This document shows, one piece after another, positions 5,228 through 44,879 of a stretch of 64,000 bases of DNA. The notes beneath the pieces are model-generated. The model did not search any database. It was not told the origin of the DNA and worked only from the letters and a program-made list of their open reading frames with translations. This DNA comes from Candidatus Multivorans sp. Lineage in GTDB: Bacteria > Acidobacteriota > Thermoanaerobaculia > Multivoradales > Multivoraceae. A program made the translations under genes and the position numbers. Where the stretch lies: NCBI GenBank assembly GCA_965247095.1, contig OZ251997.1, forward strand, positions 3,904,001 to 3,968,000, read 5' to 3'. Positions within the stretch are counted from its first letter, which is position 1. Each line of letters begins with the position of its first letter.

Positions 5228-5309
5228 GCGAAAGTGGCGGAACTGGTAGACGCGCTAGACTTAGGATCTAGTCCCGGAAGGGTTGGGGGTTCGAGTCCCC
5301 CCTTTCGCA
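5228..5309 (+). tRNA. tRNA-Leu (TAG)
   Basis: GCGAAAG/CTTTCGC acceptor stem; CTAGA-ctTAGga-TCTAG; long variable arm; CCA not encoded. Confidence 0.93.
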
Positions 5310-5332
5310 CGCCTGACTTTCGCACGCCTGAC

Positions 5333-5409
5333 GCGGAACCGGTCGAGCGCTACACTCAGGATCTAGTCCCGGAAGGGTTCAGGGGGTTCGAGTCCCCCTT
5401 TCGCACGCC
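5333..5409 (+). pseudogene. Degenerate tandem copy of tRNA-Leu
   Basis: Aligns with the preceding tRNA from the D-arm to the 3' end; lacks the 5' acceptor strand; anticodon stem mismatched; loop reads CAG. Confidence 0.8.
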
Positions 5410-5466
5410 AAGCACACCTGTCCTTCGTCTCGCACTACCGGAATCGACTGAGTCTCCCGTTCGACC

Positions 5467-18079: not shown

Positions 18080-18919
18080 GTGAGTCGGCCGCACACAAGC
18101 GTTCCCCCGCTCCGTCGATCCCTGGGCCAGCATCATCTTCGGCATCCCGGGTCCGCGGCGCCGGCCGTCGACTTTCTGAACGTCGCCGGTCGCAGCGTAG
18201 TGGAGATCGGCCCCGGCGGCGGTGTGCTCACCCGCCTGCTGCTGGAACGCGGCGCTAGCCGCGTGATCGCCTGCGAACTCGACCTGCTGTGGGCGATGGA
18301 GCTGCGCCGCCGGATCGTGGATCCGCGCCTGGTCCTGGTCGCCGGCGACGGCTTCGACCTCCGTTACGAGAGAGCGCCGGCCTCGACCCGGATCGCCGGC
18401 AACCTGCCGTACAACGTGGCGACCCGGATCGTTCTCGCCGTCCTCGAGCGGGCGCCGGTCGGCGCCCGGGCCGCGTTCCTGGTGCAGCGTGAGGTCGCGG
18501 ACCGGCTGACCGCGGAACCGGGCGAGTCCGACTACGGAGGGCTGAGTGTCCTGGTCGCTGCCCGGTCGACGGCGCGCCGGCTGTCGGTCGTCCAGCCCGG
18601 CAGTTTCGTGCCGCCACCGGCCGTGACCAGCGCGTTCGTGGGACTGGAGCGTGCCGCGCCGCCGGTCGACGAGGCGGAGTGGTCCGCGTTTGCCGGCTTC
18701 GTGCGCACCGCCTTCAGCCAGCGGCGCAAGACGCTGCTCAACAACTTTCGGCCGAGCGTGGGTCGGGTTGCCGCCGAAGCGGCGCTCGCGGCGCTGGACC
18801 TGCCGCGCAAGGTGCGGGCCGAGAAGCTGGGCCTGCCTGAGTTCGTTGCGCTGTTCCGGGAGATGAAGAGACTTCGTCAGGCGAAGGACAGCCAGACTAG
18901 CGCGGCAGAACTCGCCTAG
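18080..18919 (+). CDS. rsmA: 16S rRNA adenine dimethyltransferase
   Basis: SLGQHHL, EIGPGGG, GNLPYN, FSQRRKTL; GTG start inferred. Confidence 0.92.
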   Translation: MSRPHTSVPPLRRSLGQHHLRHPGSAAPAVDFLNVAGRSVVEIGPGGGVLTRLLLERGASRVIACELDLLWAMELRRRIVDPRLVLVAGDGFDLRYERAPASTRIAGNLPYNVATRIVLAVLERAPVGARAAFLVQREVADRLTAEPGESDYGGLSVLVAARSTARRLSVVQPGSFVPPPAVTSAFVGLERAAPPVDEAEWSAFAGFVRTAFSQRRKTLLNNFRPSVGRVAAEAALAALDLPRKVRAEKLGLPEFVALFREMKRLRQAKDSQTSAAELA

Positions 18920-18962
18920 GTCGGCGCACCCAGTTTTCGCCGCGCAAGCTACTAGCTGCATA

Positions 18963-20538
18963 AGTGCTTTCCAATCCTGAAATGAGCGTGAACGGGACCG
19001 TCATGGAGAGTCGAGTCGGGTCGGTCTCGGGGTAGTTCTGGGGCGGCAGACGGTTCTGCACCGTCTGCCGCCTAGGGTAGCGCCCGCTGCGAGGCCGCGG
19101 CGGTTGCGGGCGTTGTGTTCCGGCCTGGGCCGATGGTGTTGTGCGGTGTATGGCATCGGGCTGCGCGGTCTGCGGTTCAGGCGCTCCGGCGCCGGTGGGG
19201 ATCGGACTCCCGGTCGATGAGTTCGAAGAGTCTGGCACGAGCCAGCTTGAGGGCGATCGCGGCGTCGAGGTCGCTCGTGGCGCCGGCCTGGTCTTGGAGG
19301 GCGGCGATGGTGACGCCGGGCCTGAGGTACCGCTCCGCGTCCGGCAGGGACTTGAGCTTCTCGAACGGCGTCATGGTGTCCTGGTAGCGGTAGCGTTTCC
19401 TGGTGCGGCCCTTCCTGTCGGTGACCTCGGTGGGAAACAGACACGGGCGATGGAAGTTGAGGAAGGGGGTGAGCACATCGCGTGCGAAGACGTTGATCTC
19501 GCGGGCGAAGAGCTTGGGGATGTGCCGGTATCCGAACTGGCGCCGGATCACGTTGCCGTTCTTGCTCTCGACCAGGGCGTTGTCGTTGGTGTGCCGGCTG
19601 CGGGACTTGGTGAACTCGGGGACGTGCAGTTGGTTGAGCATCCCGGCGACCTTGCGGTTGATGTACTCGGAGCCGTTGTCGGCGTGGAAGCCCAGCACCT
19701 TGAAGGGGCAGGACTCGATGAGCTCCTTGAGCACCGGCACGAGACACCGTTGGGAGATGGCCCGTACCGTCGCCACGTGCTCCCACTGCAACACCTCGTC
19801 CACGAGGTTGATGTGGTACACGCCCTTCTCGCCGTCTTTGTCCCCTTGGTGCACCGTGTCCACCCGCAGGTAGCCCGGCTTCCCCTCCGGCTGGGGCTTG
19901 CGTCGTTCCCCGATCCCGACCGCGGTCGACCGCGTCTTCTTGAACGTCGTCCGGCGCCGCTGGTAGGTGGTCGACTTGCGCAGGTTGTAGAACTGGCCGT
20001 TCGAGATCACAGCCAGACGCTCGAAGCGCTCGTCGCCGTACAGCTCGAACTGGCGCCGCATCACCGCCCGCGTGCTGTGACCGCACATCTGGCCCAGTGC
20101 CGCGTCGACCTCGGCGAGAAGGCCGATGTCGGCCTTCGTGTAACGCCGCCCGAATGCGTGAGGCGGCGCACCGCGGCGGTCCTCGATGCGGCCCGTCTCC
20201 CGGTGCTGCCGGATCAGCCGCGTCAACTGCGACTCGGACTTCCCGGTCATCTTCATCAGGTAGCGCCGAATCATGCCCTTGTCGCGCCTCACAAGCGCCC
20301 GGTAGCGGAACCTGACCAGCGTCTCACGGATGAACTCGTACGTCGATCCGCGGTCCACCACCACGAAGTCCACCGCCTCGTTGCCGGCCACGAAACTGCG
20401 GACCTCACAAAGAGTCTGAAGTCGGCGTGTCTGGAGCGTCACGATCATCCTCCGATGATCCCCGATACCGGCGCTTCACGCTCACTTCTCGCTGGATTCA
20501 CGCACCCCGCTCACGCTCACTTCTCGCTGGACAGCTCT
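18963..20538 (-). mobile_element. Insertion sequence with rve/DDE transposase (ISNCY/IS481/IS1202-like; family uncertain)
   Basis: Imperfect terminal IR (AGTGCTTTCCA...TGAGCGTGAA and TCACGCTCACTTCTCGCTGGACAGCTCT); GCATA direct repeat at 18958-18962 and 20539-20543; 21-bp subterminal motif at 20476-20496 and 20511-20531. Confidence 0.8.
19177..20448 (-). CDS. Integrase-core (rve) DDE transposase
   Basis: PGYLRVDTVH (D), FHADNGSEY (D), NDNALVESKN (E). Confidence 0.9.
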   Translation of the reverse strand: MIVTLQTRRLQTLCEVRSFVAGNEAVDFVVVDRGSTYEFIRETLVRFRYRALVRRDKGMIRRYLMKMTGKSESQLTRLIRQHRETGRIEDRRGAPPHAFGRRYTKADIGLLAEVDAALGQMCGHSTRAVMRRQFELYGDERFERLAVISNGQFYNLRKSTTYQRRRTTFKKTRSTAVGIGERRKPQPEGKPGYLRVDTVHQGDKDGEKGVYHINLVDEVLQWEHVATVRAISQRCLVPVLKELIESCPFKVLGFHADNGSEYINRKVAGMLNQLHVPEFTKSRSRHTNDNALVESKNGNVIRRQFGYRHIPKLFAREINVFARDVLTPFLNFHRPCLFPTEVTDRKGRTRKRYRYQDTMTPFEKLKSLPDAERYLRPGVTIAALQDQAGATSDLDAAIALKLARARLFELIDRESDPHRRRSA

Positions 20539-40393: not shown

Positions 40394-41587
40394 TTGACCG
40401 TCCACGCAATTGTCCCCGCCGCCGGAAGGGGCAGGCGGTTCGGCGGCGATCGGCCGAAGCAGTTTTCCCTGCTCCTGGACCGCCCGGTCCTGGCCTGGAC
40501 CGTCGAACGGCTTGTCGCCGTCCCCGTCATCGACCGGGTGGTCGTCGCGGCGCCGGCGGGGAGCGCCCACGAGACGCTGGAGATGCTGGCAGAGGAAGTT
40601 GCACCGCGGCCCGGAGTTGCGCTCGCCACGGTGGAGGGTGGCCGGCGCCGCCAGGATTCGGTAGCGGCCGCGCTCGCGGCGACCGCCGCGGATGCCTCCG
40701 ACTGGGTTGCGGTTCACGACGGCGCCCGCCCCTGTCTGAGCGCGGCGGACCTCGAAGCCGTCGTTCGGGCGGCGGCCGGGGGTGGCAGGGCCGGCGCGGT
40801 CCTCGGGCGTCCGGTGAGCGACACCCTGAAGACGGTCGAGTCGGGCCGGCTCGGCGCGACGGTCGATCGGGCGGGTCTTTTTCGGGCCGAGACGCCCCAG
40901 GTCTTTCGGGCCGGGAAGCTGGCGGCTGCGCTCGAGCGGGCGACGGCGCTGGACATCGAAGTGAGCGACGAGAGCAGCCTGTTCGAGCCGGGTTCGATCG
41001 TTGCTGTTGAGGCGTCCCACCCGAATCCGAAACTCACCGATCTCTCGGATCGCGCCGCGATCGAGGCGCTGCTGCGACCGCGGCAAGGAGCGCGGCCGGT
41101 CGTCGAGACCGCGGTCGGCCACGGCTACGACGTGCACCGGCTAGTCGCTGGGCGGCCCCTGATCCTTGGCAGCCAGAGGATTCCGCACGAGGCCGGTCTG
41201 GACGGTCACAGCGATGCCGACGTGGTGCTCCATGCGATCGGCGACGCCCTGCTCGGCGCCGCCGGGCTCGGTGACCTTGGAGTCCACTTTCCCCCGTCGG
41301 ACGACGCTTGGCGCGGTGCCGACAGCTCGGACCTGCTCCGGCGGATCGTCGACCTGGTCCGCGAGCAGGGGTTCGAGGTCCGGAACTGCGACGTGACGCT
41401 GATCGCCGAGCGGCCAAGGATGGCGCCCTACCGCGCGGCGATCGAGGATCGTGTTGCGCGCCTGCTCGGGCTCGACCCCAGGCGAATGAACTTGAAGGCC
41501 ACGACCCATGAAGGGCTGGGGCCCCTCGGTCGAGGTGAGGGCATGGCGGCCGAGGCCGTCGTGCTGATCGAGCGGCGGCGCGTGTGA
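40394..41587 (+). CDS. ispDF: Bifunctional IspD/IspF
   Basis: PAAG.G.RFG..PKQF, HDGARP; GHGYDVH, GHSDADV, KATT.EGLG. Confidence 0.93.
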   Translation: MTVHAIVPAAGRGRRFGGDRPKQFSLLLDRPVLAWTVERLVAVPVIDRVVVAAPAGSAHETLEMLAEEVAPRPGVALATVEGGRRRQDSVAAALAATAADASDWVAVHDGARPCLSAADLEAVVRAAAGGGRAGAVLGRPVSDTLKTVESGRLGATVDRAGLFRAETPQVFRAGKLAAALERATALDIEVSDESSLFEPGSIVAVEASHPNPKLTDLSDRAAIEALLRPRQGARPVVETAVGHGYDVHRLVAGRPLILGSQRIPHEAGLDGHSDADVVLHAIGDALLGAAGLGDLGVHFPPSDDAWRGADSSDLLRRIVDLVREQGFEVRNCDVTLIAERPRMAPYRAAIEDRVARLLGLDPRRMNLKATTHEGLGPLGRGEGMAAEAVVLIERRRV

Positions 41588-42375
41588 GCAGACGAGGCGA
41601 TCGCCGGGGTACTCCGGCGCCCGCCGCCACCGCCGGCTGGCGACTCGGCTTTCAGCCGGTCCGCGAGATCCTCCGCAGCCAACCGCACGAAGTCGCCGAA
41701 ATCGTCATGTCCAGGGCGGCGGGGGAGCGCCGCCGGACGATCGAGAGCCTGTGCACAAGACACCGCGTGCCGGTTCGGAGCGTGACCGCCGCCGAACTGC
41801 GGGTGCGGCTCGAAGCGGCGGGACTCGACCACGCGCCGGCGCGCGGCTTCGCGGCGGTCCTGTTGCCCCGGAGTCACGACGGATCGACGGTTGCTGCCGC
41901 CGACCCGCAGCTCCTGGTGCTGGTCGAGGACGTGCAGGATCCACGGAACCTGGGCGCCCTGCTGCGCGTGTGCGAGGGGGCCGGGGTTGGCCGCGTTCTG
42001 ATCCGTGACCGCGGCGCGGCGCCGCTCTCTGCCGCGGTCGCCGGAACCGCCGCGGGTGCGGTCGATTGGCTCGACGTCGAGCGGATTGTGAACAGCGGCC
42101 AGGAGATCGAGCGCCTCAAGCGCGACGGTTACTGGGTCTACGGCGCCGACGCCACAGGCGTAGCGCCGTGGACGGTCGACCTGAGCGGCCCGATCGTGCT
42201 TTGCATCGGCGGCGAGGCGCGCGGCCTGCGTCGCCGGACAAGGAGCCTCTGCGACGGCCTTCTCGGCTTGCCGATGCGCGGCCGCGTCGAGTCCCTCAAC
42301 CTGTCCACGGCGGCCGCAGCGCTGCTCTACGAGGCGGTGCGCCAGCGTCTTGTCACGCCGGAGGGCCTGGCGTAG
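41584..42375 (+). CDS. rlmB: 23S rRNA Gm2251 methyltransferase (TrmH family)
   Basis: VQDPRNLGA, GGEARGL, VESLNLS. Confidence 0.88.
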   Translation: MSRRGDRRGTPAPAATAGWRLGFQPVREILRSQPHEVAEIVMSRAAGERRRTIESLCTRHRVPVRSVTAAELRVRLEAAGLDHAPARGFAAVLLPRSHDGSTVAAADPQLLVLVEDVQDPRNLGALLRVCEGAGVGRVLIRDRGAAPLSAAVAGTAAGAVDWLDVERIVNSGQEIERLKRDGYWVYGADATGVAPWTVDLSGPIVLCIGGEARGLRRRTRSLCDGLLGLPMRGRVESLNLSTAAAALLYEAVRQRLVTPEGLA

Positions 42376-42427
42376 ACTCCGGCGTCGCCGTGGCGCCGCC
42401 ATGGTGCCTAAGTGCTTCGTCGCGAGG

Positions 42428-42503
42428 GCCGGCATAGCTCAGTTGGTAGAGCAACTGCCTTGTAAGCAGTAGGTCCTCGGTTCGAATCCGGGTGCCGGCT
42501 CCA
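42428..42503 (+). tRNA. tRNA-Thr (TGT)
   Basis: GCCGGCA acceptor stem; ctTGTaa loop; CCA. Confidence 0.95.
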
Positions 42504-42517
42504 CGGAGGAAGTTGCC

Positions 42518-42604
42518 GGAGGTGTGGCCGAGCGGTCAAAGGCAACAGACTGTAAATCTGTCGGGCAAAGCCCTACGATGGTTCGAATCCATCCGCCTCC
42601 ACCA
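42518..42604 (+). tRNA. tRNA-Tyr (GTA)
   Basis: GGAGGTG acceptor stem; ACAGA-ctGTAaa-TCTGT; long variable arm; CCA. Confidence 0.95.
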
Positions 42605-42624
42605 CTTCTTCCCTTTGCGGGCGT

Positions 42625-42699
42625 GCGGGAGTAACTCAGGGGTAGAGTCACAGCCTTCCAAGCTGTTGGTCGCGGGTTCGAATCCCGTCTCCCGCTCCA
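42625..42699 (+). tRNA. tRNA-Gly (TCC)
   Basis: GCGGGAG/CTCCCGC acceptor stem; CAGC-ctTCCaa-GCTG; CCA. Confidence 0.95.
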
Positions 42700-42700
42700 C

Positions 42701-43160
42701 GCCGCGCGGAGCGCCGGCGTGGAGCGTGAGACGGGATTCGGCGTACATCGCTCGCGCAGCGAGCGATGCGGGCCAGCAAATCCCGTCTGGCTCCATGCCG
42801 CGCGGAGCGCCGGCGTGCAGCGTGAGACGGGATTCGGCGTACATCGCTTGCTGCGCAAGCGATGCGGGCTAGCGAATCCCTTGTGTGTGCTCGGGCCGCG
42901 GGGAGCGCCGGCGTGGAACGTGAGACGGGATTCGGCGTGCATCGCTTGCTGCGCAAGCGATGCGGGCTAGCGAATCCCTTGTGTGTGCTCGGGCCGCGGG
43001 GAGCGCCGGCGTGGAACGTGAGACGGGATTCGGCGTGCATCGCTTGCTGCGCAAGCGATGCGGGCTAGCGAATCCCGTTCCAGGGCGCACGGAGCGCCGG
43101 CGTGGAGCGTGAGACGGGATTCGGCGTGCATCGCTTGCTGCGCAAGCGATGCGGGCTAGC
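42701..43160. repeat. Five-unit tandem array of tRNA-Gly-antisense hairpin repeats
   Basis: Cores start at 42708, 42804, 42902, 43000 and 43091; consensus GGAGCGCCGGCGTGGARCGTGAGACGGGATTCGGCGTRCATCGCTTGCTGCGCAAGCGATGCGGGCTAGCGAATCCC. Confidence 0.95.
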
Positions 43161-43215
43161 CCGCATCAAGCGCGATGCCGCGAAGCGGCGAGCACGTACC
43201 TCGCCGTCAACCCGC

Positions 43216-43689
43216 CTACTCCTTCGCCGCCACTACCGCCGTAGCTTCCACCTCGATCAGCAGGGACGGGTACACGAGTCCCGTCACGCCGACCCAGGTT
43301 GAGGCGCGTGGCGGATCGAGCTGAAGCACCTTGGCCTGGGCCCGCCCGGCTTGCTGGACCTTCTCGGGATCGATGTCCTTGATGTAGACGTTCGTCTTCA
43401 CGATGTCCTCGGCGCTTGCGCCGGCCTGCTCCAGGCGCTTGACGACGTTGGTGAAGGCGATCTCGGCCTGCTCGGCGAGGGTGGCCGCGGGCGCCTCTGC
43501 GCCGTCGGCCCAGCCGATCTGTCCCGAGATGAGGATCGTGGTGACGCCGTTTGCGGTCGTCTTGGCGATGTGGGAGAAGCCCTGCTGCGAGCCGAGGAAT
43601 TCGGTTTTCAATTCTTGTGCCTCCGCGATACCGGCTGCGAGCAGGAGCGCACCGAGGAAGAAGGCTAGGCGATCGGGTTGTCTCTTCAT
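43216..43689 (-). CDS. Rid/YjgF family protein with signal peptide
   Basis: ISGQIG, AGAS.EDIVKTNVY, LLIEVEATA; hydrophobic N-terminus ending AEA. Confidence 0.85.
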   Translation of the reverse strand: MKRQPDRLAFFLGALLLAAGIAEAQELKTEFLGSQQGFSHIAKTTANGVTTILISGQIGWADGAEAPAATLAEQAEIAFTNVVKRLEQAGASAEDIVKTNVYIKDIDPEKVQQAGRAQAKVLQLDPPRASTWVGVTGLVYPSLLIEVEATAVVAAKE

Positions 43690-43850
43690 TTCGGTCTCCT
43701 GGATCGTGCCGTGCCGGCCGTTGAAAGTAGCCGGCGGGTGTAGGGGATGCGTACGATAGCGCCAACTCCGAGTCTGCGAGGGGCCATCGTTCGCCTCCTG
43801 CTCCCGATCGTGAGGTGCCCGGTGCTACGCTGACCTTGGAGGCTTCGGAT

Positions 43851-44879
43851 ATGAGAATGGACCGTTTCCTTCCGGCCCGGTTGGCCTTGTGCGCGGTGCT
43901 CACGCCCTTCCTGCACGGGCCGGCATTTAGCAGCGAACCGCAGTGGGTGACCTACCCCGGGGGCGACGGCCCCGGCGCCGGCCGCAAGGTCGTCCTGATC
44001 GCAGGCGACGAGGAGTACCGCTCGGAGGAGGCGATGCCGATGCTCGGCAAGGTGCTCTCGGTGCGGCACGGCTTCGAGTGCGTGGTGCTGTTCTCGATCG
44101 ACGCCGAGACCGGGACGATCGACCCTGAGGAGCAGACGAACATCCCGGGTCTCGAAGCGCTCGACGCCGCCGACCTGATGGTGATCGCGACCCGTTTCCG
44201 GGAGTTGCCGGACGCGCAGATGAAGCACATCGTCGACTACGTCGAATCGGGGCGGCCGATCGTCGGATTGCGGACGGCTACGCACGCCTTCTCCTACCAA
44301 CGCAACCCTGACAGCCCGTACGCGCACTGGAGCTTCCGCAGCGAGACGTGGCCGGGCGGGTTCGGGCAGCAGGTGCTCGGCGAAACGTGGATCAACCACC
44401 ACGGTCACCACGGCAGGGAGAGCACGCTCGGCGTCATGGCGCCCGGCGCCGCCGGCCATCGCATCCTGCGCGGAGTGACCGACGTCTGGGGCCCGACGGA
44501 CGTCTACGGAGTGAAGAACCTCGGTGACGACGCCGACGTGCTGCTGTTGGGGGCGGTGCTGGCCGGGATGTCTCCGGACGATCCGCCCGTGGAGGGGCCG
44601 AAGAACGACCCCATGGAACCACTGGCCTGGATCCGCTCGTACACGGGCAGCGGCGGCAAGGCCGCGCGCGTGTTCACGACCACGATGGGCGCCTCGACGG
44701 ACTTCGAGAGCGAGGGGCTACGGCGCCTGGTGGTGAATGCCGTGTACTGGGGGCTCGGGATGGAGGACCGGATCCCCGAGCAGAGCGACGTGCGGATCGT
44801 CGGCGAGTACAAGCCGACTAGCTTCGGCTTCGGCAGCCATGCGGGAAGCGTCATGCCCTCCGTCCACGCGCTGCCCTAG
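43851..44879 (+). CDS. ThuA-like domain protein, probably secreted
   Basis: GDEEYRSEE, GLRTATHAF, RVFTTTMG; signal peptide. Confidence 0.75.
   Translation: MRMDRFLPARLALCAVLTPFLHGPAFSSEPQWVTYPGGDGPGAGRKVVLIAGDEEYRSEEAMPMLGKVLSVRHGFECVVLFSIDAETGTIDPEEQTNIPGLEALDAADLMVIATRFRELPDAQMKHIVDYVESGRPIVGLRTATHAFSYQRNPDSPYAHWSFRSETWPGGFGQQVLGETWINHHGHHGRESTLGVMAPGAAGHRILRGVTDVWGPTDVYGVKNLGDDADVLLLGAVLAGMSPDDPPVEGPKNDPMEPLAWIRSYTGSGGKAARVFTTTMGASTDFESEGLRRLVVNAVYWGLGMEDRIPEQSDVRIVGEYKPTSFGFGSHAGSVMPSVHALP

Follow-up and report, generated by a model that had tools for sequence, protein, structure and literature searches.

Tandem arrays built on an antisense copy of the adjacent tRNA 3′ end behind tRNA-Gly and tRNA-Glu genes of Candidatus Multivorans

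Repeats that lie behind tRNA genes are usually dismissed as integration scars or as REP clutter. The nearest described case to the array presented here is probably the tyrT locus of Escherichia coli, in which a distal repeat of 178 bp occurs about three times, includes the final ~19 nt of tRNA-Tyr in every copy, and serves as the source of rtT RNA. Several other systems offer partial parallels. REP, BIME and REPIN sequences are GC-rich, imperfect intergenic palindromes with compensated stems that form short tandem clusters; REPs number tens to hundreds of dispersed copies and do not derive from adjacent genes. The primer-binding sites of retroviruses and LTR retroelements begin with TGG and complement the terminal 18-21 nt of one particular tRNA, CCA included. 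Copies of the 3′ part of a tRNA also lie downstream of tRNA genes, sometimes several in a row, in Islander-type islands and tycheposons, where direct repeats bracket kilobases of cargo and an integrase, and partial tRNA copies are the usual footprint of integration (PMC9897764; bioRxiv 10.1101/2020.12.28.424599). Finally, in the tandem-inversion-duplication model of Kugelberg et al. (2010), as summarised in PMC4689423, DNA folds back at an inverted repeat that is short and interrupted, the nascent strand is copied, and synthesis returns at a second repeat, which leaves three copies with the middle one inverted. The literature searched gave us no account of arrays whose units centre on an antisense copy of the adjacent tRNA tail.

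The array described here comes from a genome of Candidatus Multivorans sp. (GCA_965247095.1) that consists of a single 4.62-Mb contig with 67.7% G+C. The window, meaning the whole stretch of DNA analysed, comprises 64,000 nt of contig OZ251997.1. Within it, ARAGORN and Rfam both identify a plus-strand operon of tRNA-Thr, tRNA-Tyr and tRNA-Gly(TCC), and directly behind the encoded CCA of the last gene TRF finds a single array (42701-43160; period 98, 4.8 copies, 91% matches). An earlier sequence-only reading had described this locus as a tRNA-Gly followed by a five-unit antisense array, and each of its details that was checked by TRF, repeat searches, ARAGORN and Rfam proved right. Five direct copies start at 42701, 42797, 42895, 42993 and 43084, which reproduces the claimed periods of 96, 98, 98 and 91. 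The inverted-repeat search likewise recovers the claimed pairing of 42679-42704 with 42715-42740, a 26-nt inverted repeat that is complementary at 25 of 26 positions (96%) and has arms only 10 nt apart. Its sense arm consists of the last 21 nt of tRNA-Gly plus 5 nt of trailer. Chance cannot plausibly account for complementarity of this extent at a distance of 10 nt.

Each unit follows one design (Table 1). First comes an antisense copy of the terminal 21-26 nt of the tRNA, which recurs in units 2 to 5 at 92-96%. It is followed by a nested hairpin (hairpin B) with a 10-bp stem and a 3-nt loop, and units 1-4 close with a short sense copy of 8-21 nt that corresponds to the T-loop/T-stem part of the tRNA. 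The nested hairpins, including the still-pairing variant in unit 1, are as the earlier reading described them, and so are the closing sense segments; unit 5 stops short of its own. Most of the sense partner has been lost from the inner units. The array does not code as a repeat, because 98, its period, cannot be divided by 3. Nor does it look like a CRISPR locus, in that the whole 98-nt period repeats at 91% and unique spacers are absent.

Table 1. Features of the tRNA-Gly(TCC) operon and its downstream array, in window coordinates
Feature	Position	Strand	Basis or detail
SpoU-family RNA methyltransferase ORF, upstream neighbour of the operon (context)	41584-42375	+	PF00588, E 1.9e-32
Candidate sigma-70-like promoter, upstream of the tRNA operon	42350-42378	+	9/12 hexamer matches; consensus match only
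tRNA-Thr(TGT), upstream operon member	42428-42503	+	ARAGORN, Rfam
tRNA-Tyr(GTA), upstream operon member	42518-42604	+	ARAGORN, Rfam
tRNA-Gly(TCC), CCA encoded	42625-42699	+	ARAGORN, Rfam
Hairpin A apex, centre of the tRNA-tail/antisense palindrome	42705-42714	+	Inverted-repeat search, relatives compared
Antisense copy 1 of the tRNA-Gly 3′ end	42715-42740	+	25/26 complementary
Hairpin B, unit 1	42746-42768	+	Compensated, still-pairing variant
Sense copy 1, degenerate copy of the tRNA 3′ end through CCA	42777-42795	+	
Unit 2	42797-42894	+	Antisense 42811-42836, hairpin B 42842-42865, sense 8-mer 42873-42880
Unit 3	42895-42992	+	Antisense 42909-42934, hairpin B 42939-42963, sense 8-mer 42971-42978
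Unit 4	42993-43083	+	Antisense 43007-43032, hairpin B 43037-43061, sense copy from 43069
Unit 5, partial	43084-43160	+	Antisense 43098-43123, hairpin B 43128-43152; ends before any sense copy
20-nt palindrome at the distal array edge, reversing on itself for 10 nt	43148-43167	+	Inverted-repeat search
RidA / L-PSP-family ORF, convergent, next gene after the array	43216-43689	-	PF01042, E 1.2e-17

No co-directional gene stands behind the array, the next gene being the convergent RidA-like ORF. There are no terminator-like sites in 42000-44000, and our own scan for intrinsic terminators, in which a U tract comes after a GC-rich hairpin, was negative behind Gly-TCC, Glu-TTC and Glu-CTC; each unit hairpin runs into a tail that is only G/U-rich. 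Canonical terminators are rare behind tRNA genes across the whole genome, with most tRNA loci lacking one, and their absence from the Gly operon therefore carries little weight. An Rfam scan of 41500-44500 with E values up to 1 returned no family besides the tRNAs. The contigs of two RNA runs (X15 and X16) cover the tRNAs and leave 42723-43333 uncovered, which has no bearing either way on transcription.

The resemblance to tyrT is close in several respects. Both are tandem arrays directly 3′ of a tRNA gene, in operon orientation, with a copy of the tRNA 3′ end in every unit, and both presumably grew by unequal recombination. However, the tyrT repeats hold sense copies only, whereas the units here are centred on an antisense copy and long hairpins, and the Rfam scan of 41500-44500 gave no match to rtT. 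It is quite possible, if somewhat short of probable, that the array is a variant of such tRNA-linked trailer repeats with a fold-back origin.

The 98-nt unit matches the 4.6-Mb genome at its own locus only (contig positions 3946679-3947160). The sequence-only reading had proposed a search for the same architecture, with flanks matched to each host tRNA, behind other tRNA genes, and the search was positive at tRNA-Glu(TTC) and tRNA-Glu(CTC). When the last 20 nt of every ARAGORN tRNA call (n = 53) were compared, as reverse complement, with the sequence downstream, the scores were 19/20 for Gly-TCC, 17/20 for Glu-TTC and 15/20 for Glu-CTC, with all other tRNAs at 14/20 or below, and a loose motif scan of the genome found true modules only behind these three genes. 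The Glu-TTC trailer is an array with a period of 97 and 3.1 copies. That of Glu-CTC has a period of 99 and 1.9 copies, together with a 29-nt inverted repeat at 86% whose arms are 0 nt apart. The layout at both Glu genes is a GC hairpin behind the CCA, an antisense copy of the local tail, another hairpin and, last, a T-arm fragment in sense. All three loci have a unit length of 97-99 nt and resemble one another in the sequence that surrounds hairpin B. The T arm CGGGTTCGAATCCCGT is common to just four tRNA genes in the genome, Gly-TCC, Glu-TTC, Glu-CTC and Gly-GCC. Three of these four carry the module; the fourth, Gly-GCC, is an internal gene of an operon, with tRNA-Cys 41 nt further on, and lacks its own trailer.

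These distributions bear on the idea that the unit belongs to a dispersed REP or MITE family, or that the array is an assembly artefact. The module shares with REP, BIME and REPIN sequences its GC-rich imperfect palindromes, its short tandem clusters and its compensated stems, and assemblies are error-prone in repeat arrays. Unlike REPs, however, the unit occurs only behind the tRNA from which it was copied, and the dispersed copies expected of a REP or MITE are absent from this single-contig genome. The MITE alternative raised by the earlier reading thus fails, because there are no unit copies apart from those at tRNA genes. Many assemblies made independently have arrays of 2-7 units at these three loci, and none of the 30 bins of the window is left uncovered by the Logan contigs of run X1. 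The copy number of 4.8 units is nevertheless an assembly figure, as no Logan contig spans the array, and Logan run X5 holds a related form of the locus with a different joint. We consider both of these explanations extremely improbable and largely refuted.

In the genomes compared, the module is confined to close relatives. An exact-pattern scan of one genome per GTDB species, which looked for a tRNA tail, a gap of 4-34 nt and the antisense, returned 19 records, all titled as Thermoanaerobaculia, 'Candidatus Multivorans', Acidobacteria or Holophagales MAGs. The Gly unit was matched in 19 of the 24 same-genus genomes drawn. In all 19 fetched loci of relatives with an ARAGORN tRNA-Gly, the match lies directly 3′ of the same Thr-Tyr-Gly cluster; one more locus (L012), which starts too late to show its tRNA, stands outside this count. 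The Glu-TTC trailer was matched in 41/41 genus genomes and the Glu-CTC query, which included the tRNA, in 40/41. Beyond the genus, none of 23 loci from 11 other families, whose tRNA-Gly is 100% identical, carries an antisense or nearby sense copy in the 412-700 nt fetched behind the tRNA. The feature is real, conserved, and restricted to tRNA genes.

Copy number varies widely among these relatives. Among 27 distinct Gly loci the antisense core is absent from 2, single in 17, and present in 2 copies in 4, in 3 copies in 2, and in 4 and 5 copies in one each, the maximum of 5 being that of the genome under study. The range is 0 to 6 over 30 Glu-TTC loci. At Glu-CTC the core, which is a perfect 15-mer in relatives, is missing from 11 of 30 loci and present in 1 to 7 copies in the other 19. 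Units 2-4 of the array in this genome are 96-100% alike, and their best match in another species is only 92%; the array therefore expanded recently and locally.

A search of metagenomes and viral sequences with the pattern GAGCGNGAGACGGGATTCGG was less informative, since the pattern was mis-specified and also matches an ordinary tRNA-Gly T loop reading TCCGAAT on the other strand. Almost all 80 metagenome loci fetched are ordinary tRNA-Gly genes of other phyla, and among the matches listed only one (L217) is of the same lineage. Low-GC contigs encountered in this search hint that the design may also occur beyond the genus. Of two viral loci, one is an ordinary tRNA-Gly and the other just a partial tRNA-like stretch.

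Because partial tRNA copies are typical of integration (PMC9897764; bioRxiv 10.1101/2020.12.28.424599), the sense copies might be leftover attR-type partial tRNAs of deleted islands that were later duplicated in tandem. The sense copies of 8-21 nt are indeed direct repeats of the tRNA 3′ part, and single, sense-only partial copies lie behind Arg-CCT, SeC and Leu-TAG in the same genome. Integration, however, yields direct repeats rather than an antisense copy abutting the tRNA. In place of the cargo and integrase of an Islander or tycheposon, as the same sources describe them, there are only ~75 nt between the tRNA and the first sense copy, with no island remnant and no integrase nearby, and the identical design recurs at three loci. 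We therefore regard an origin as integration scars as very unlikely. In six genomes of other families of the order, partial copies of tRNA-Gly(TCC) lie 2.7 to 49 kb away in sense orientation, as expected of islands and unlike the module.

A related proposal is that the module is itself a recombination site or a miniature site-specific element, namely a folded or duplex attachment site served in trans by a recombinase that targets tRNAs with the T arm of these loci, with the arrays representing stacked empty sites. By analogy with integron attC sites and folded phage attP sites, an imperfect palindrome whose outer boxes copy the T loop and T stem around a variable centre could be such a site, although we judge the comparison quite unlikely to hold. 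Its attraction is that the module is confined to tRNAs with one particular T arm, that unit length and hairpin B flanks are common to the three loci, and that the outer boxes are conserved while the centre is variable yet paired. The distant island-type copies of tRNA-Gly(TCC) in other families are also compatible with it. However, no gene cassette lies between units in any of the ~87 loci examined, and the antisense is copied from the local tRNA, such that the element would need rebuilding at each site. The genome has five matches to PF00589, none of them near an array or in the window, which leaves the decoy attachment sites suggested by the sequence-only reading unsupported; the two strongest matches (174 and 160 bits) may, at a guess from their scores alone, be a XerC/XerD pair. 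The sole mobile gene seen at these loci is an IS110-family transposase inside the module of one relative (G016), which interrupts the module as an insertion and is not its cause. Taken with these observations, a recombination site seems to us a rather improbable explanation.

The antisense segment itself is well conserved. First antisense 21-mers in the 26 in-genus Gly loci that hold one are perfect in 13, carry one mismatch in 7, and carry at least two in 6. Mean pairwise identity over 25 of these loci, which are those with up to 4 mismatches and leave out the most degraded one, is 93% for the antisense 21-mer, compared with 60% for the next 19 nt and 64% for the preceding 10 nt. Hairpin A, behind the CCA, differs in sequence between species and keeps its self-complementarity, and in several species the tRNA tail, hairpin A and the antisense form a near-continuous palindrome with arms of ~30 nt. 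For hairpin B, 20 distinct Glu-CTC units give 91.5% paired cells versus 27-37% in slid controls. Five of 20 pairs changed on both sides (shuffle mean 2.6, reached in 14/500 shuffles) and the covariation score is 0.093 versus 0.057 (reached in 1/500 shuffles), figures of a kind that related sequences inflate, as the tool itself warns. The RNA of the plus strand is more stable than that of the minus strand in 20/27 Gly units and 28/37 Glu-TTC units, and has two to three times more G-U pairs. The greater plus-strand stability hints at constraint at the level of RNA, with the counts resting on few independent events.

Folding of tRNA-Gly together with its trailer, in five constructs from four species, gave a consistent picture. 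In 5/5 minimum-energy folds the acceptor and T stems are opened and the tRNA tail is paired with the antisense. For the genome under study, the sequestered fold reaches -103.7 kcal/mol versus -91.4 kcal/mol for the cloverleaf plus trailer hairpin with a 100-nt trailer, and -173.9 versus -152.2 kcal/mol with a 200-nt trailer. The corresponding values for the other species' constructs are -114.4/-104.5, -109.6/-92.3 and -125.9/-95.1 kcal/mol. The earlier reading had proposed an RNA switch, in which the antisense of unit 1 pairs either with the tRNA or with its own downstream sense copy. Both alternative pairings do exist, but they are not balanced, the sequestered fold being favoured by 10-31 kcal/mol over the five constructs. 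Because the minimum-energy fold sequesters the tRNA 3′ end throughout, the sense copy further down leaves the tRNA unreleased at equilibrium, contrary to what had been suggested, and with so one-sided a balance any switching effect would have to be kinetic. Behind the array there is also no gene in the same direction for a switch to regulate. A regulated switch is conceivable yet lacks support. Were it transcribed, the array would rather be a very stable hairpin trailer on the tRNA transcript, with no tuned switch.

The main rival to the explanation that we favour below builds on these folds. It holds that the trailer acts as a functional cis-antisense RNA, co-transcribed with the tRNA, that pairs with the 3′ 21-26 nt of the tRNA and controls or proof-reads its maturation. 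This might happen by sequestration of the RCCA end, by creation of an entry site for RNase III or RNase P, or by a block to 3′ exonucleases or a terminator function, with the sense copy as a competitor and copy number tuning the effect. It would be in keeping with the sequestration of the tRNA 3′ end in all five folds, with the conservation of the antisense relative to its flanks (20 of 26 first 21-mers have at most one mismatch), with the persistence of pairing in hairpin A and its compensation in hairpin B, and with the strand asymmetry in fold stability and G-U pairs. The lack of a canonical terminator fits as well, a lack that this operon shares with most tRNA loci of the genome. Furthermore, leader pairing with the 3′ RCCA is reported to inhibit RNase P binding (PMC9433436).

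Other observations count against strict selection on an RNA. The module is dispensable, with no copy in 11/30 Glu-CTC loci and a missing or broken one in at least 2/27 Gly loci. Recurrent mismatches in the antisense are incompatible with RNA pairing, since they are not wobble pairs: six Gly loci have U-C at position 8, and most Glu-TTC loci have G-A. About 8.5% of the hairpin B stem cells at Glu-CTC are unpaired, chimeric arms included; the inner units have lost most of the sense partner; and copy number runs from 0 to 7 between species. On balance, a functional cis-antisense RNA strikes us as doubtful, its place as main rival notwithstanding. In its most specific form, the antisense would be a conserved, built-in 'anti-tRNA' that captures the last 21-26 nt of tRNA-Gly(UCC), tRNA-Glu(UUC) and tRNA-Glu(CUC), with release of the mature tRNA set by cutting of the trailer or by competition from the sense copy, and with repeat number as a dial. 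We consider this form unlikely. If it were true, particular tRNAs would mature under a check or throttle encoded in cis.

Our preferred reading, to which we give slightly less than even confidence, is that the locus is a miniature inverted triplication (sense-antisense-sense) of the tRNA 3′ end that arose by fold-back and grew by unequal recombination. The locus has three copies with the central one inverted, as in a tandem inversion duplication, and hairpins A and B sit at the two turn-rounds. A nascent DNA strand would fold back, by snap-back template switching, at hairpins around the end of the tRNA gene; hairpin A behind the CCA would be the first turn-round, and hairpin B between the antisense and the sense copy would be the second. 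The resulting sense copy, 96-98 nt behind the tRNA tail, would then allow unequal recombination or slippage to make and unmake whole units, and we infer that one module expanded to 4.8 units in this genome by unequal recombination between sense copies. What keeps the antisense arm near the tRNA sequence might be templated correction inside the palindrome, or else selection that favours a stable hairpin.

Several findings speak for the fold-back proposal. The modules at Gly-TCC, Glu-TTC and Glu-CTC are each built from the local tRNA, and the copy-number spread among relatives fits unit gain and loss by recombination. Further signatures are the 20-nt palindrome at the distal edge of the array and an inverted repeat at Ser-CGA, where the variable-arm hairpin of the trailing units is extended to 14 nt by an inverted copy of the 5′ half of the T arm. 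On the other side, the mechanism is read back from its end product. Known tandem inversion duplications are kilobases long, compared with 21-26 nt here, and they are transient under selection, whereas this structure is fixed, genus-conserved and later amplified in tandem. Hairpin B is also not recognisably derived from the tRNA. A candidate homology to the anticodon/variable region was weak and had to be rejected: when the 28 nt before the sense copy were compared with the tRNA and with shuffles, p was at least 0.05 in 20/20 modules, two of which gave 0.05-0.06. Confinement to one genus, a unit length of 97-99 nt at three loci and the similar surroundings of hairpin B, as at the two Glu loci, suggest that a common element or function may fit better than a general replication error. 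Likewise, the 93% identity of the antisense against 60-64% for its flanks, together with the compensated pairs of hairpin B, argues against a purely neutral by-product.

Loss of SbcCD was considered as a cause of palindrome tolerance and set aside. Neither SbcD nor SbcC is found above cut-off in this genome, but SbcC passes its cut-off in no more than 17 of the order's 61 genomes and in 1 of 7 in the genus. Its absence is therefore not linked to the module, because most of the order lacks it too.

By analogy only, the antisense also recalls a primer-binding site, being a stretch that starts with TGG and is complementary to a tRNA end including the CCA. Unlike a primer-binding site, it always adjoins its cognate tRNA gene, and it is therefore a local copy. 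No reverse transcriptase above threshold occurs in the genome; the best PF00078 match, at 23.5 bits versus a cut-off of 29.6, lies ~270 kb away and far from all arrays. Because this match is both sub-threshold and so distant, the resemblance is merely formal.

At the three tRNA genes described here, the core of the trailer mirrors the tail of the tRNA in front of it, and at Gly-TCC its first copy is held at 93% identity between species beside neighbours at ~60%. If transcribed, the antisense should pull the tRNA out of its cloverleaf on thermodynamic grounds. Should the fold-back reading be correct, these loci would show in nature, down to the base pair, how hairpins drive fold-back duplication, and would offer many independent expansions for comparison. 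Should an RNA role be correct instead, they would represent a hitherto undescribed coupling between a tRNA and its antisense. They are also a warning for tRNA and island finders, because these genomes hold many partial or inverted tRNA pieces that are not attachment sites.

The three modules belong to a wider habit of the genus, in which tandem partial tRNA copies accumulate behind tRNA genes, and further arrays show that tRNA ends are duplication hot spots in this genome. These arrays are sense-only. Behind Leu-CAA, partial or decayed tRNA copies repeat with a period of 90 (3.5 copies), and the array behind Ser-CGA has a period of 87 and 6.5 copies with 99% matches. At Met-CAT the period is 138 (2.2 copies), and the unit consists of a whole pseudo-tRNA and a terminator.

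Three further tRNA genes of the Candidatus Multivorans genome (Leu-CAA, Ser-CGA, and Met-CAT) are trailed by tandem partial or decayed tRNA copies that run in the sense orientation only. The Ser-CGA trailing units carry a lengthened variable-arm palindrome. Trailing Ser copies occur in three of the six genus members sampled, and none were found in the sampled genomes of other families. In the window itself, a decayed but near full-length self-copy lies about 100 nt or less behind tRNA-Leu(TAG), with 17/18 identity over the T arm and the 3′ part of the acceptor.

Much larger repeats are found elsewhere in this genome, where about 40 repeats of a 333-nt unit span 13 kb and adjoin 12.9 copies of a 288-nt repeat. 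Both are presumably giant repetitive surface-protein genes. Loss of SbcCD was considered, and set aside, as a reason for the tolerance of long palindromes. No match above threshold was obtained in the whole genome for SbcD (best 24.7 bits versus a cut-off of 77.65) or for SbcC Walker-B (best 23.2 bits versus 27), and SbcC exceeds its cut-off in only 17 of the 61 genomes of the order.

In the relative G016, the tRNA-Gly trailer module is interrupted by an IS110-family transposase, inserted together with approximately 6.5 kb of extra DNA directly past the antisense segment. Elsewhere in the order, other families carry partial tRNA-Gly(TCC) copies that cover positions ~26-75 and are separated from the intact gene by 2.7-49 kb, as in genomes G073 (contig C57), G090 (C3), and G034 (C5), among others. 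Such distant copies typically mark islands that have integrated at tRNA-Gly(TCC).

Features noted near tRNA genes and in large repeats (G000, source genome; C1, contig; L numbers, loci)
Feature	Location	Details
Leu-CAA trailing array (L048)	G000 C1 1127547-1127856	period 90, 3.5 copies
Ser-CGA trailing array (L049)	G000 C1 3276420-3276988	period 87, 6.5 copies
Met-CAT trailing array (L050)	G000 C1 2645843-2646142	period 138, 2.2 copies
tRNA-Leu(TAG) with trailing self-copy	window 5228-5410 (G000 3909228-3909410)	
333-nt repeat array	G000 C1 2150568-2163733	
IS110-family transposase	L114 (G016 C1 927000-946700), ~18099-19160	PF01548, PF02371
Inverted tRNA-Gly(GCC) pieces	L172, L233, L237, L165, L213, L229	G+C 0.39-0.50

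Finally, metagenome contigs from unrelated low-GC bacteria repeat, in inverted orientation and about 50-60 nt 3′ of a tRNA-Gly(GCC) gene, 11-13 nt of its T-loop, T-stem, and acceptor start. Because of these inverted pieces, a weaker version of the antisense tRNA-tail design may exist elsewhere.
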